64,000 nt of DNA from an uncultured Alphaproteobacteria bacterium (GCA_963745205.1 CAVUWX010000004.1:125339-189338), one strand, 5' to 3'; shown: positions 1,333 through 12,488, counted from the first letter of the stretch. Made by a program: numbers and translations. Notes: generated by a model from the sequence alone, not told the origin.

Positions 1333-2982
1333 ATGGACCCCAAGACCCTGGCCACCGAGACAATATTGCCGAACGGCCAAGCAAACAGCGGCCATGGCAT
1401 AGCCGACGACGAGCTGGTCCGCCAGATCCGCCGCCGGCGCACGTTCGCCATCATTTCGCATCCCGACGCAGGCAAGACGACGCTAACCGAAAAGCTCCTG
1501 CTGTTCGGCGGCGCCATTCAGCTTGCCGGACAGGTCAAGGCAAAGAAAGATAAGCGCAACACGCGCTCAGACTGGATGGCTATCGAGCGCGCGCGCGGAA
1601 TTTCCGTCGCCACCTCGGTGATGACGTTCGAGTACGAAGACGTCGTTCTGAACCTGCTCGACACGCCCGGTCACGAAGACTTCTCCGACCATACGTATCG
1701 CACGCTGACAGCCGTCAACTCCGCGATCATGGTCATCGACGCGGCCAAAGGTATCGAGGCGCGCACGCGCAAGCTGTTCGAGGTCTGCCGGCTTCGCGAC
1801 ATTCCCATCATCACGTTCATCAACAAGATGGACCGGGAGAGCCGAGAGCCGCTGGAGCTGCTCGACGAGATTGAAAAGGTGCTCGCGCTCGACACCGCCC
1901 CCATGGTTTGGCCGATCGGCAAGGGCAAGGAGTTCCGTGGGACGTACGATTTCATTCAACCTCGCGTTCGTCGGCTCGACGAGAGCCCCGACGGTCTGCC
2001 GGTGTCGGGCCCGGACGATCCGATCTTCGGGCAGCTCATCGAGCAAGACAAATTGCAGCGCTGGCGTGACGAGCTCGACCTCGTGCACGACGCCTGCGGG
2101 CGCTTTGATTTGAAGGCCTTTCGTGAAGGGACCTTATCGCCAGTTTACTTCGGCAGCGCGCTCAAGAATTTCGGGGTGCGAGATCTCCTCGATGCGCTTG
2201 TCGCTTTTGCGCCGCCGCCGTTGAACCGTAAGGCCGCGACGCGGACCGTGGTGGCGACCGAGCCGGCGATGACCGGGATCGTCTTCAAGATCCAGGCGAA
2301 CATGGACCCGAACCATCGCGACCGCATCGCGTTCATGCGGGTTTGCTCTGGTCGTCTGACGCGGGGCATGAAAGTGAAGCACGTACGCACCGGCAAGACG
2401 ATCGCACTTCAGACTCCGCAATTCTTCTTTGCGCAGGACCGCTCGCTGGTGGAGGAGGCATATGCCGGCGACGTCGTCGGAATCCCAAACCGCGGCACGT
2501 TGAGGATCGGCGACGCGCTGACCGAGGGCGAGGACATCAGATTTCTTGGCATCCCGAGCTTCGCGCCCGAAATCTTGCGCCGCATAAGGCTGGAGGATGC
2601 GATCCGGGCCAAAAAGCTCAAGGAAGCGTTGGGGGAGATGGCCGAAGAGGGAGTCGTCCAGCTCTTCAGTCCGCTCGACGGCTCGCAGCCCATCGTGGGC
2701 GTCATCGGTGCCTTGCAGCTCGACGTTCTAGGCGAACGCCTCACGCATGAGTACGGACTGCAAATCGGGTTCGACGCCGCACCATGCGATCTCCTCCGTT
2801 GGATCACGTCCGAAGATTCTGTTGCGCTGTCTCGCTTCGTCGAAAAGAACAGGTCATCCATCGCCACGGATTCAGAGGGAGATTACGTGTTCCTTGCGCC
2901 GTCGGTCTTCAGCCTGTCTTGGACCCAGGAACAAAATCCGGAGATTACATTCGTGGATATCAAAGCCGTCGCTCAGCTCTAA
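1333..2982 (+). CDS. prfC: Peptide chain release factor 3
   Basis: RRRTFAIISHPDAGKTTLTEKLLLFGGAI, NLLDTPGHEDFSDHTYRTL, NKMD G-domain motifs, FKIQANMDPNHRDRIAF. Confidence 0.97.
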   Translation: MDPKTLATETILPNGQANSGHGIADDELVRQIRRRRTFAIISHPDAGKTTLTEKLLLFGGAIQLAGQVKAKKDKRNTRSDWMAIERARGISVATSVMTFEYEDVVLNLLDTPGHEDFSDHTYRTLTAVNSAIMVIDAAKGIEARTRKLFEVCRLRDIPIITFINKMDRESREPLELLDEIEKVLALDTAPMVWPIGKGKEFRGTYDFIQPRVRRLDESPDGLPVSGPDDPIFGQLIEQDKLQRWRDELDLVHDACGRFDLKAFREGTLSPVYFGSALKNFGVRDLLDALVAFAPPPLNRKAATRTVVATEPAMTGIVFKIQANMDPNHRDRIAFMRVCSGRLTRGMKVKHVRTGKTIALQTPQFFFAQDRSLVEEAYAGDVVGIPNRGTLRIGDALTEGEDIRFLGIPSFAPEILRRIRLEDAIRAKKLKEALGEMAEEGVVQLFSPLDGSQPIVGVIGALQLDVLGERLTHEYGLQIGFDAAPCDLLRWITSEDSVALSRFVEKNRSSIATDSEGDYVFLAPSVFSLSWTQEQNPEITFVDIKAVAQL

Positions 2983-8936: not shown

Positions 8937-9034
8937 TTTCGGGCGGTAATTTCCTAACGATGACTTAGCTCGAAGGGATGGCGGCCAGTCTCTTCGTGAT
9001 CGGGCAGCGGCGCGGGACTTGGAAGAGGAACGAT

Positions 9035-9730
9035 ATGAGAGTTCTGCTGATCGAAGACGACAGCGCAACAGCGCAGAGCATCGAGCTGATGCTCCAGTCC
9101 GAAGGGTTTAACGTCTACACCACGGATCTGGGCGAGGAGGGCGTCGACCTCGGCAAGCTCTACGACTACGACATCATCCTTCTGGACCTCAACCTGCCGG
9201 ACATGTCCGGATACGAGGTCCTGAAGACATTGCGGGTGGCCAAGGTCTCCACCCCCATCCTCATCCTCTCCGGCCTCGCTGGCATCGAGGACAAGGTGCG
9301 GGGCTTGGGCTTCGGCGCCGACGACTACATGACGAAGCCGTTCCACAAGGACGAGCTCGTCGCCCGCATCCACGCCATCGTGCGCCGCTCCAAGGGCCAT
9401 GCGCAGTCCGTCATCGAGACGGGTGATTTGCGCGTCAACCTCGACACCAAGACCGTCGACGTCAACGGCGCTCGCGTGCATCTGACCGGCAAGGAATATC
9501 AGATGCTGGAGCTGCTCTCGCTCCGCAAGGGCACGACGCTCACGAAGGAGATGTTCCTCAACCATCTCTACGGCGGCATGGATGAGCCCGAGCTCAAGAT
9601 CATCGACGTCTTCATCTGCAAGCTCCGCAAGAAGCTGCAGGCAGCCACCGGCGGCCAGCACTACATCGAGACGGTGTGGGGCCGCGGCTACGTGTTGCGC
9701 GATCCCGCCGACGACACCGTCGCCGCATAA
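9035..9730 (+). CDS. ctrA: Cell-cycle master response regulator CtrA
   Basis: [20 protein letters not shown]...[28 protein letters not shown]...[33 protein letters not shown]...[15 protein letters not shown]. Confidence 0.99.
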
Positions 9731-10445: not shown

Positions 10446-10807
10446 GCTGGCGCATTTTGCAATGGGCTGATCTGGCGGAATGTCTCAGCAGAGCCTCTCA
10501 GTGCCGGTAAAGCGAGCAACGACGTAAACTCACCAACGACGGAACGACGGCGCACCTGCGATCGACGCAGCGATGACGAGTACGGCGATGACATTCGCCC
10601 CGCTTCATTTCGGTTTCTTCCGCTTCTCCATCGACTTAGCAGGTGCCGCTGATGCCGCTCTCGCCCTTTGTGGCGAGCTTTGACGATGTTGAGCCGTTCC
10701 TGTCGCGTTCCTTTGACATCCTCTCATAACACCATTGATCTGTTTACAACGGCGTGTAGATGCCTCGGAGTTTTACGATAACAACTCAACAGCGCTATGA
10801 GCCTTCC

Positions 10808-11158
10808 ATGAGCGACGCTGACGAGAATGCCAACATTGCGGCGATGACCGCTCTGCTTGACCGGTTCCGCAAGAAGGTGCTGGCGAGCCCTGAGTATCAA
10901 GCATTCAAAGCGATGGAGGAGGCTCTCGCGAAGGTCCGGGCAGCTCAGGGCATACCGCCATCAAAGGCAGCCAGCGCTGACGATCGTCCAACCAGCCAAG
11001 GTGAGGCGGCATACATCGCCATTAAGTCCGAAGGTCTGCCGCTCAGCATCGCGGAGCTATTGGAGAGGCTTGCAGTCATGGGCGTAAAGGTTGGCGGCGC
11101 CAATCCACGCATAAATCTCTCATCCACGCTGTCTCGTGACGACCGGTTCACCTCCTGA
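10808..11158 (+). CDS. Hypothetical protein with C-terminal winged-helix-like (HARE-HTH-like) domain
   Basis: GEAAYIAIKSEGLPLSIAELLERLAVMGVKVGGANPRINLSSTLSRDDRF fits a wHTH pattern; N-terminal helical segment; 3' end may be truncated. Confidence 0.55.
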   Translation: MSDADENANIAAMTALLDRFRKKVLASPEYQAFKAMEEALAKVRAAQGIPPSKAASADDRPTSQGEAAYIAIKSEGLPLSIAELLERLAVMGVKVGGANPRINLSSTLSRDDRFTS

Positions 11159-11273
11159 AGTCCGTGCCGGAAAACGCCGCGATGAGCCGCGAGGCTCGTC
11201 CGATCCCGGTGGGCACCTAATTTATACAACCTACTGAATTCGGCAGTAAAATTTAAATTCCGCCGATCGGTCA

Positions 11274-11685
11274 ATGGCTTATTCCATGCTGCAGCATCAC
11301 CCAAAAATCGGAGCAGTGCTCCGATGCGACTACGACACGGGGTTCAGGGCTCCAGAAATGATAAAGCAACGGCCTGTAATCGTAGTGTCTCCGAGACTGA
11401 GGGAGCGTAATAACTTATGCACGGTCGTTCCCTTGGGATCGAAGGAACCTCGGAAGATCATGCCTTATCACCGGAGGATTACTTTTGATCCGCCGCTCCC
11501 GCCTCCGTATGACTATGGCGTGCACTGGATCAAGGCCGATATGTTGGCGACGGTAGCGTCGCCTCGACCTTCTTTTCATCAAAAAAGTGAACGGAAATCG
11601 CATGTACGATAACCGCGTGATTTCCAAAGAAGAACTAGATGCTGTTCACCTCTGCATAAGGCATGCACTCGGCATGCAATCTTGA
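11274..11685 (+). pseudogene. PemK/MazF-family toxin with a frameshift near 11559 (real or assembly error)
   Basis: HPKIGAVLRCDYDTGFRAPEMIKQRPVIVVSPR...LCTVVPL...HWIKADMLATVA; a second frame continues RLDLLFIKKVNGNRMYDNRVISKEELDAVHLCIRHALGMQS* (TGA 11683-11685), the expected C-terminus. Confidence 0.85.
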
Positions 11686-11707
11686 CAGCCCCTAGTGGGA
11701 CTACATG
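11682..11707 (+). promoter_or_regulatory. Sigma70-type promoter overlapping the toxin stop codon
   Basis: TTGACAG-N11-ACTACATG versus the Caulobacter housekeeping consensus TTGACGS-N11-GCTANAWC. Confidence 0.65.
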
Positions 11708-11711
11708 TTGT

Positions 11712-11832
11712 TTGTGTTCCCGCTCTGCTTCGGCATCGGGCTTAAGTCCTCCGTAAGGAGACCGTCACGCGAGGCGATTGCAAGCTGTGCGTGACGTCGA
11801 TGGGCCCCGCTTCGGCGGGGCCTTTGCTTTTT
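11712..11832 (+). ncRNA. Candidate structured RNA downstream of the PemK-like toxin (four tandem hairpins)
   Basis: Hairpins at 11719-11740 (UUCG loop), 11746-11762 (GUAA GNRA loop), 11763-11796 (CGTCACGC/GCGTGACG) and 11802-11823 (UUCG loop plus U-tract); lies between a promoter and a terminator, with no ORF. Confidence 0.65.
11802..11832 (+). terminator. Intrinsic terminator
   Basis: GGGCCCCGC-TTCG-GCGGGGCCT then TTGCTTTTT. Confidence 0.85.
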
Positions 11833-12139
11833 AGCGCTTCTCCCCGGCAATTGGTTGCCGATAGGTCAGCCGCTTGCCCGGACGGCACGGAGCACACCGG
11901 CACTCCTGAACTCCACCTCGGATGGCGGAAACTTCTGACGACGGTCAGAAGGCAGAACGTAATGATCGAGCGATGGAGCGCCGGCACCCACAATGGTGCT
12001 GGCGCTTTCGTGTCGGCGTGGCGCGGCTTTGCGATCGAAGGCCCCTGCGCGCAACCCTGACCGCCCTGTTCCGCGCGAGACAGCGCCGCGCGACCGGGCG
12101 GGAGAGAGTGCGTGGCCTTTGACCTTAAGGAGCCGCAAA

Positions 12140-12373
12140 ATGTCCCCGCTAAAGACGTTCAACGCAACCACCCTCATCCTGACGGCCGCTGGGCTCGCGC
12201 TCCTTGGCATTCTGACCCTTGAGGCTAGACCCACTTTGCTGCCGGCCGGGAGCGCCGCAAGCGGGCCATCGAGTGGCCAGTCCATTGTGCGTGCAAACAC
12301 CACCAATTCTTCGGCCGCAAACAATTCTGCAGGGACACCGCTGTCGATTAGCTCCAAGCCGAGGTCGACCTGA
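12140..12373 (+). CDS. Small hypothetical exported or membrane-anchored protein
   Basis: TAAGGAG RBS before the ATG; hydrophobic LILTAAGLALLGILTL then a Ser/Asn-rich tail. Confidence 0.4.
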   Translation: MSPLKTFNATTLILTAAGLALLGILTLEARPTLLPAGSAASGPSSGQSIVRANTTNSSAANNSAGTPLSISSKPRST

Positions 12374-12488
12374 CGTATCTGCAAGTTCCGCTCCGCCCCC
12401 GCGCACGAAACGTGAAATTAACGCCGTCCCACCAGTCTCATTGCATCCACGGTCCAGACCGCTGAGCGTCTGCAACTGAGAGCTTGAG

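Follow-up and report, generated by a model that had tools for sequence, protein, structure and literature searches.

A 64,000-nucleotide stretch of DNA from an uncultured Alphaproteobacteria bacterium (GCA_963745205.1 CAVUWX010000004.1:125339-189338), hereafter referred to as the window, carries at positions 11,274 to 11,832 a YifN-type gene of the PemK/MazF toxin family, followed by a promoter and a structured RNA of about 117 nucleotides (nt). By comparing this locus with its homologues in other genomes, plasmids and viral contigs, we found the RNA to be tightly linked to this clade of toxin genes, for which it may serve as an antitoxin. The features of the locus, all on the plus strand, are as follows.

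11274..11685, plus strand: YifN-type PemK/MazF-family gene, a pseudogene according to PF02452 and the alignment with intact relatives
11682..11687, plus strand: -35 box TTGACA, overlapping the toxin stop codon (sequence; TTGAC(A) in 75 aligned loci)
11704..11709, plus strand: candidate -10 box CATGTT, with a 16-nt spacer (position-specific counts from 75 loci)
11715..11831, plus strand: structured RNA gene of ~117 nt (covariance models R1 and R2)
11719..11740, plus strand: P1 hairpin with UUCG loop (covarying pairs CG, GC and UA)
11741..11747, plus strand: single-stranded linker CUUAAGU between P1 and P2 (consensus of the model alignment)
11748..11761, plus strand: P2 hairpin with GUAA loop, its outermost pair being a C11748-A11761 mismatch
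11763..11796, plus strand: P3, a long stem with the 8-nt loop GAUUGCAA (compensatory changes and top mutual information)
11802..11833, plus strand: intrinsic terminator with a 9-pair G+C-rich stem and UUCG loop, followed by UUUGCUUUUU (terminator scan; the helix covaries)

The Pfam domain PF02452 was matched over 11274-11612 with an E-value of 1.9e-10 and a score of 41.4 bits (gathering cut-off 23.1), in agreement with the original prediction, made from the sequence of the window, of a PemK/MazF-fold toxin gene from 11274 onward. In the sources, the clade name for this protein is "YifN (PemK superfamily)". The N-terminal frame starts at 11274, is good to residue ~94 and runs into a premature stop at 11610-11612, and the C-terminal 42 codons lie in another frame that ends with the TGA at 11683-11685. 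Relative to the closest relative, the intact locus L118 (protein ~80% identical), 5 nt are missing between 11556 and 11557. Intact relatives of this toxin are 133-144 amino acids (aa) long. Judged by these frames the copy in the window is a pseudogene, of which intact copies exist elsewhere; an assembly error as the cause of the frameshift is possible but unlikely, since the deletion site is not a homopolymer.

The stop codon of the gene is contained within the TTGACA of the -35 box, just as had been foreseen. The -10 box had been placed at ACTACATG after only 11 nt, which is too close to the -35 box, and the conserved place is instead that of CATGTT, 7 nt before the first conserved bases of the RNA. 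Relatives mostly have TAnnnT here; the -10 box of the window is weak, and CATGTT was not reported by a simple sigma-70 scan. The RNA, single copy in its own genome, is predicted to start near 11715-11716 and to end within the U tract 11823-11833. Its scores were 108.7 bits over 11715-11834 with the covariance model R1 and 100.9 bits with R2 (both described below). The four hairpins proved to be as first described, with tetraloops UUCG, GUAA and UUCG and a U-tailed terminator as the last (hairpin proper 11802-11823). Mechanical open reading frames (ORFs) of 49-89 aa do overlap the region, which makes the claim that there is no ORF only approximately true, but its conservation follows compensatory pair changes and not a coding pattern.

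In P1, CCCG (11719-11722) pairs with CGGG (11737-11740), the inner stem is UGC/GCA, and the internal loop CUC(U)/AU is near-invariant, with alignment positions G8, C9, C11 and U12 invariant. The AAG of the linker is nearly invariant family-wide, and Escherichia coli K-12 keeps CUAAGU at the equivalent place. At the base of P2, 75 of 76 sequences have a C-G pair, the window being the sole exception, as do all 63 distinct copies from viral contigs. P3 includes an inner three-pair helix (11773-11775 with 11784-11786) and a loop with the family consensus GAnnnCAA; compensatory changes were found at all 8 outer and 3 inner pairs, and the pairs with the highest mutual information are located here. 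The near-invariant unpaired bases are GC-CU and AUC within the internal loop of P1, the AAG of the linker, a GGC that follows P2, and G-GA...CAA in the P3 apical loop.

Conservation was analyzed in 80 homologous loci taken from one-genome-per-species contigs, with representatives from Alpha-, Beta-, Gamma- and Deltaproteobacteria, Chlorobi, Planctomycetes, Nitrospirae and Anaerolineae. When the 150 nt downstream of the gene in the window were compared to these loci by BLAST, stretches with 90-100% identity (window 11714-11752) were found, beginning within ~70 nt after the toxin stop codon, in loci whose proteins match that of the window at 44-63%. Conservation is accordingly higher in the RNA than in the gene. 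With an iterated sequence profile, the element was recovered behind 71 of 79 genes. The structure was drawn from a MAFFT alignment of 20 sequences, fitted to no model, in which 97.2% of the base-pair cells are standard pairs, as compared to 33-43% when the partners are slid by 1-3 columns. Compensatory changes occur in 19 of the 29 pairs of this alignment, and none of 500 shuffles reached the observed values.

With the covariance model R1, built from the same 20-sequence alignment, 76 of the 80 loci gave a match to the RNA at E < 1e-5. The contig ends too early in two of the remaining four loci, and the other two (L054 and L059) have no match. In the R1-fitted alignment, 97.5% of the cells are paired and 28 of 29 pairs have compensatory changes, i.e. 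the covariation expected downstream of homologous PemK genes if the prediction was right is strongly present. The Watson-Crick pairs of all six helices rank first by mutual information. Beyond the helices, the model alignment has no tertiary or pseudoknot covariation except at position 33 (U/A in AAGWCC), which co-varies with the closing pair of P3b and the base after P3; given two main clades, this may reflect shared ancestry.

A second model, R2, was built from 75 sequences and applied to a replication set of 80 further homologous loci on IMG/VR viral contigs, none of which was used for the model. The RNA was found in all 77 usable loci with 34-103 bits, the other three ending at or just after the gene. 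In the 63 distinct copies, 96.8% of the cells are paired and 28 of 29 pairs have compensatory changes. Furthermore, in an even sample of 301 genomes from the class of the window, a protein profile identified 9 carriers, all with the RNA beside the gene (9/9); eight of these were also found in an RNA-first search, and the ninth, at 47.7 bits, with filters off. The RNA is likewise present, at 86-107 bits, in the five closest metagenomic relatives. A search for paralogues of the RNA in the window's own genome gave only terminator-like fragments.

Three identical matches from that genome were rejected as copies of the RNA, as they represent an unrelated multi-copy element. These stretches (G000 C28:20137-20555, C27:8213-8631 and C14:6417-6835; L128-L130) are identical over at least 121 nt, probably belong to a multi-copy mobile element, and share 19 nt at 89% identity with P1 by chance.

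Several properties set the RNA apart from the gene. In 75 loci, TTGAC(A) is situated at -34 to -29 and TAnnnT at -11 to -6 from the RNA start, giving a conserved promoter of the form TTGAC(A)-N16-18-TAnnnT just 5' of the first helix, and its -35 box usually lies within the last codons of the toxin ORF, often in a C-terminal "LT.." tail. The RNA is located on the same strand as the gene and downstream of it in the great majority of loci, in most cases 10-70 nt past the stop codon with no terminator between. In L063 (3408-3544, minus strand) and in L146 and L148 (both 1893-2031, minus strand) the RNA is convergent, with its terminator overlapping the ORF end, and a weak convergent match of 21.8 bits occurs on the E. 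coli plasmid p5217 (L094 854-992, minus strand). In four viral contigs (L211, L221, L223 and L224) the order is RNA, terminator and gene, with the terminator 10 nt before the start codon; in L224 the RNA (1363-1485) and its gene are found between a LexA/CI-like repressor gene and a nuclease-like gene. Since convergent and upstream positions occur as well, the RNA is a partner gene in its own right rather than a 3' untranslated region (UTR), and these arrangements together with its own promoter identify it as a gene predicted to act in trans. The genes after the RNA vary among loci and are often on the opposite strand, and therefore the RNA is not their leader.

Intact relatives of the protein score 39.6-46.6 bits with PF02452 (cut-off 23.1). 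An AlphaFold2 (AF2) model of one of these (P0002), based on 51 aligned sequences, had a mean predicted local distance difference test (pLDDT) value of 94.1 and a predicted template modelling (pTM) score of 0.87. Using this model in a Foldseek search of the PDB, all of the top 50 matches were MazF, MoxT or YdcE, with target TM-scores of up to 0.83, and RNA-bound MazF structures were included among these 50. In a profile search of PDB sequences (5ck9 and 3nfc), the invariant PEMxKxRP of the clade aligns with SEQAGHRP of MazF, such that the invariant E28 and R33 and the near-invariant S55 align with MazF E24, R29 and T52, which we take to be the catalytic residues of MazF. Since the fold and the counterparts of these residues are kept, the YifN-clade family should, as predicted from the model, be an active endoribonuclease. 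The toxin in the window has G55-S56 at the counterpart of T52, and its frame is lost further on. The clade is sizable: 168 clusters at 50% identity were retrieved at E <= 1e-30 among 1.84 billion representative proteins, and the carriers include hundreds of species as well as plasmids and prophages.

Turning to the neighbors of the gene, clustering of ORFs of at least 50 aa around 78 loci yielded no recurrent family besides shadow ORFs of the toxin gene. An ORF abuts the gene start in only 33 of the 78 loci, and these ORFs are unrelated to each other; a small helix-turn-helix (HTH) gene is found directly upstream in three loci (L013, L031 and L055). Of 2556 locus pairs, 16 resemble each other in the 250 nt upstream, as compared to 655 of 3003 pairs in the 250 nt downstream. 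Neither neighbor clustering, nor the abutting ORFs, nor the upstream DNA revealed a MazE- or PemI-like gene upstream of or adjacent to the toxin gene.

The module resembles several known systems. Type III systems (ToxIN, CptIN and TenpIN) also combine an endoribonuclease having a Kid/MazF-like core with an adjacent non-coding RNA, lack a protein antitoxin and reside on plasmids and prophages, and a minority of the loci studied here share the order RNA, terminator and toxin gene. The toxin is, however, Pfam PemK/MazF by sequence and not ToxN, CptN or TenpN, and no ToxN structure was found among the 50 best fold matches of the P0002 model. The RNA is also one non-repetitive unit of ~117 nt rather than a tandem array of 34-45-nt repeats, and it is usually found downstream with its own promoter, the upstream position being confined to the four viral contigs mentioned above. 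Because toxin family, absence of repeats and layout differ, the module does not, as far as its sequence tells, belong to the ToxIN, CptIN or TenpIN families.

With the type II systems MazEF, PemIK (Kis-Kid) and ChpBIK, the module shares the toxin fold, the counterparts of MazF E24, R29 and T52, the small gene and the presence on mobile elements, but there is no adjacent co-transcribed gene for a protein antitoxin. Unlike MazF, the YifN-clade protein is ~25 residues longer and has the family-specific PEMxKxRP motif and a DPPLPxPY insert. It also differs from type I toxins in being a soluble MazF-fold protein of ~135 aa and not a small hydrophobic membrane peptide. In AvcID and similar pairs, a single non-repeated structured small RNA (sRNA) beside the toxin gene is thought to inhibit the protein directly; the AvcID toxin is a deoxycytidylate deaminase and the sRNA is upstream. 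The AvcID sRNA has no sequence or structural relation to the YifN-linked RNA.

The E. coli yifN locus contains the same protein clade. Behind the yifN pseudogene of K-12 lie a near-consensus TTGACA-N17-GATAAT promoter and an RNA in which two hairpins, the first of them short, are separated by CUAAGU and followed by a terminator (L093 4905-4982, minus strand, between ppiC and yifN). This RNA scored 13.8 bits with R1 and was unreported by R2 with default filters, and the K-12 RefSeq record has no RNA gene annotated at yifN.

The pemK and abiF motifs of Rfam are similar to the present RNA in that they are structured RNAs whose names derive from the toxin or abortive-infection genes they accompany. 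No match to either was found in the window (E up to 10) or in 20 diverse loci (gathering scores). With the whole of Rfam 15, including ToxI, the best match in the window was rsmX with 26.3 bits against a gathering score of 56, and in 20 other loci only tRNAs were matched at gathering scores. No description of the YifN-linked RNA was found in the literature searched, which excluded subscription journals, and the words PemK, MazF and ToxN are absent from the text of one 2026 preprint on non-coding element mining. The absence of a matching Rfam family fits the original prediction, whose central claim of a distinct toxin-RNA architecture also held, i.e. a single-copy, non-repetitive, separately promoted RNA coupled to a PemK clade having no conserved protein antitoxin.

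The comparative data establish that the RNA exists, with the structure and promoter described, and that it is tightly coupled to the gene genetically. What the RNA does is less certain, and we assign a probability of roughly one half to a reading in which it binds and neutralises the YifN-clade toxin in a type III-like way, with binding, neutralisation and toxicity all being inferred. This reading is proposed because a MazF-type nuclease without a protein inhibitor is linked to a separately promoted RNA with conserved loops, and because the gene order is permutable and the module is carried on mobile elements, a context typical of toxin-antitoxin modules. The two-gene module would then consist of a MazF/PemK-family endoribonuclease of the YifN clade and a dedicated single-copy RNA of ~117 nt, arranged as P1, AAG linker, P2, P3 and terminator behind a sigma-70 promoter whose -35 box overlaps the end of the toxin ORF. 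The RNA would be made in excess, being transcribed from its own promoter and also carried at the 3' end of toxin mRNAs that read through, and would bind the toxin dimer directly and keep it inactive, like the RNA antitoxins of type III. Likely contact sites are the P1 internal loop CUCU/AU, the AAG linker and the GAnnnCAA loop. If the RNA ran short, e.g. when the element is lost, transcription is shut off or a phage attacks, the longer-lived protein would be released and cut cellular RNA. At the same even odds, the YifN-clade MazF/PemK toxins and their RNA would form a widespread, undescribed family of protein-RNA toxin-antitoxin systems, and the first to use a dedicated structured RNA, single-copy and with its own promoter, in place of a MazE-type protein for neutralising a nuclease that is MazF/PemK at the sequence level. 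In this family the RNA gene would lie downstream, convergent or upstream, and its distribution would extend from Proteobacteria to Chlorobi, Planctomycetes, Nitrospirae and Chloroflexi, plasmids and prophages included.

A number of observations weigh against neutralisation by the RNA. Two strong matches of the RNA-first search are orphans: one (L104 1444-1581, 58.5 bits) directly follows a higB-higA-like pair with no yifN-type gene nearby, and the other (L107 1501-1606, 46.4 bits), also with no yifN gene nearby and lacking a terminator, is situated between an ABC-transporter gene and a convergent binding-protein gene. This pattern would also be expected if the RNA had an independent function, although orphan antitoxins occur frequently. 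In E. coli the RNA has a reduced form without P3 and the P1 internal loop, implying that the proposed contact sites are either not all needed or clade-specific. ToxN processes ToxI, and here no tandem or direct repeats were found in the window, L080 or L119, with one model match per locus. Lastly, no defence-system model of PADLOC matches the protein. Carriage on prophage-like contigs is the sole phage link of the module, and the abortive-infection role raised by the original prediction is putative.

The alternative that survives best is a ribonucleoprotein not meant for self-neutralisation, where the RNA is either the active component, as a trans-acting regulator or a decoy mimicking a cellular RNA, with YifN as its dedicated binding or processing protein, or a guide, cofactor or sensor of the nuclease, e.g. 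in phage defence. We regard this as less likely, but as a serious rival. It is slightly favored by the orphan RNAs, and is in line with the very strong conservation of the unpaired bases, as seen in protein- or target-binding RNAs, and with the occurrence of the module on prophage-like contigs beside repressor genes. A further point in its favor would be the likeness of GGGCUUAAGUCC to the helix 36 hairpin of 16S rRNA, GGGUUAAGUCCC, and the match of UGUACCCGC to position 2039 of 23S rRNA, but these likenesses are at chance level and the different RNA classes point to different rRNA sites. It is also opposed by the protein itself, which keeps the MazF residues and the fold of a general mRNA/rRNA interferase; such toxins need an inhibitor, and no other is encoded.

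As to the rRNA likenesses as such, the stretch from the 3' side of P1 through the linker resembles GGG-UUAAGU-CCC of helix 36, a universally conserved hairpin, both in the window (11741-11749) and in the family consensus. For the other RNA class the likeness is to 23S rRNA 2039-2066, through UAAGACCCC and, at the 5' end, UGUACCCGC. As measured by shared 9-mers both likenesses are at chance level, and mimicry of E. coli rRNA was set aside, helix 36 and 23S 2039 being kept as a lead only.

Somewhat more doubtful is the possibility that the RNA sets the amount of toxin, either by pairing with the toxin mRNA in a type I-like manner or as a cis-acting 3' UTR element for stability or termination. 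With the spacing found in most loci, toxin transcripts should indeed carry the RNA, and in convergent loci the 3' end of the RNA overlaps that of the gene. A purely cis-acting 3' UTR role is nevertheless excluded by the upstream and convergent arrangements, and the RNA has a conserved promoter of its own. Pairing fares no better: antisense duplexes with the toxin start region of the same locus gave no signal compared to shuffled start regions (mean z -0.47, with 7% of the loci below -2), and were rejected as a candidate mechanism. A soluble RNase of 135 aa is, moreover, not the small membrane peptide of a type I system.

It is highly improbable that the toxin is checked otherwise, i.e. by an unlinked or very small protein antitoxin or an upstream HTH protein, or is not toxic at all, with the RNA as a mere co-inherited neighbor. 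The small HTH genes mentioned above, and a HARE-HTH-like upstream ORF common to the window and two close relatives, could be seen as such inhibitors, but most loci lack them, the close relative L125 included, and the upstream DNA is not conserved. Nor would a mere neighbor stay linked across phyla, plasmids and prophages while the orientation permutes. Finally, a chance run of G+C-rich stems plus the terminator of the gene, compatible with the only moderately unusual single-sequence fold (-56.9 kcal/mol, z = -2.6; 1 of 200 shuffles folds as well), is refuted by the covariation and the conservation across phyla, so that the non-chance nature of the RNA follows from the comparative data and not from that fold.

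MazF and PemK are the classic examples of type II toxins, and it has been puzzling that "orphan" copies lack an antitoxin. Should the RNA indeed neutralise the toxin, a whole clade of MazF/PemK nucleases would be under RNA control and the boundary between types II and III would blur. Furthermore, a new protein-binding RNA fold with strongly conserved loops would be available for structural work, and annotation that labels partnerless genes "type II toxin" could be corrected. The yifN locus of laboratory E. coli, with its reduced version, would make the idea directly testable in that species. Were the RNA to turn out not to be an antitoxin, it would still represent a structured RNA family that is new and widespread and has a defined protein partner.

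The module of the window itself is best described as a decaying relic, as indicated by the frameshifted toxin, the broken P2 pair and the poor -10 box, and is probably non-functional in this genome. The original prediction had implied the frameshift, while the state of decay, evident from the frameshift plus the break in an otherwise invariant P2 pair, had gone unrecognised. Inactivation looks recent, since the RNA retains its high scores of 100.9-108.7 bits and is far closer to that of L118 than the ORF is.

The module is found on various mobile elements. Among small mobilisable plasmids, Polaromonas pH8NP1 carries a canonical RNA of 109.7 bits, and Enterobacter and E. coli plasmids have divergent forms. 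Vibrio prophage-like elements carry it next to a LexA-like repressor, and it was identified on 141 IMG/VR contigs. It is absent from 36 other species of the window's genus, and a wider query (window 10446-12488) had no DNA counterpart in 8 same-genus genomes; this part of the genome is accessory. One more ORF of the window precedes the toxin gene:

10760..11158, plus strand: upstream ORF with a weak HARE-HTH likeness, apparently C-terminally truncated (sub-threshold Pfam matches)

Its product (132 aa) is 30% identical to a 138-aa homologue encoded ahead of yifN in L119, next to which it seems to be truncated. In a profile search, this ORF was absent from L125 and from 78 genome loci. It thus appears to be an occasional neighbor outside the conserved module, although it may belong to the same accessory island. 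Another ORF, at 8978-9730, has a product beginning with MRVLLIEDD, which by eye has the look of a response regulator with a winged helix and resembles CtrA, in keeping with an alphaproteobacterial origin. Its DNA is 82-88% identical in same-genus genomes, where it is not syntenic with the genes flanking the module here.

Lastly, tRNA genes or fragments similar to tRNA 3' ends are found near the module in L046 (2490-2564), L080 (3782-3855) and L060 (869-941), and just after the RNA in L087 and L091, which hints at insertion of the module near tRNA genes.

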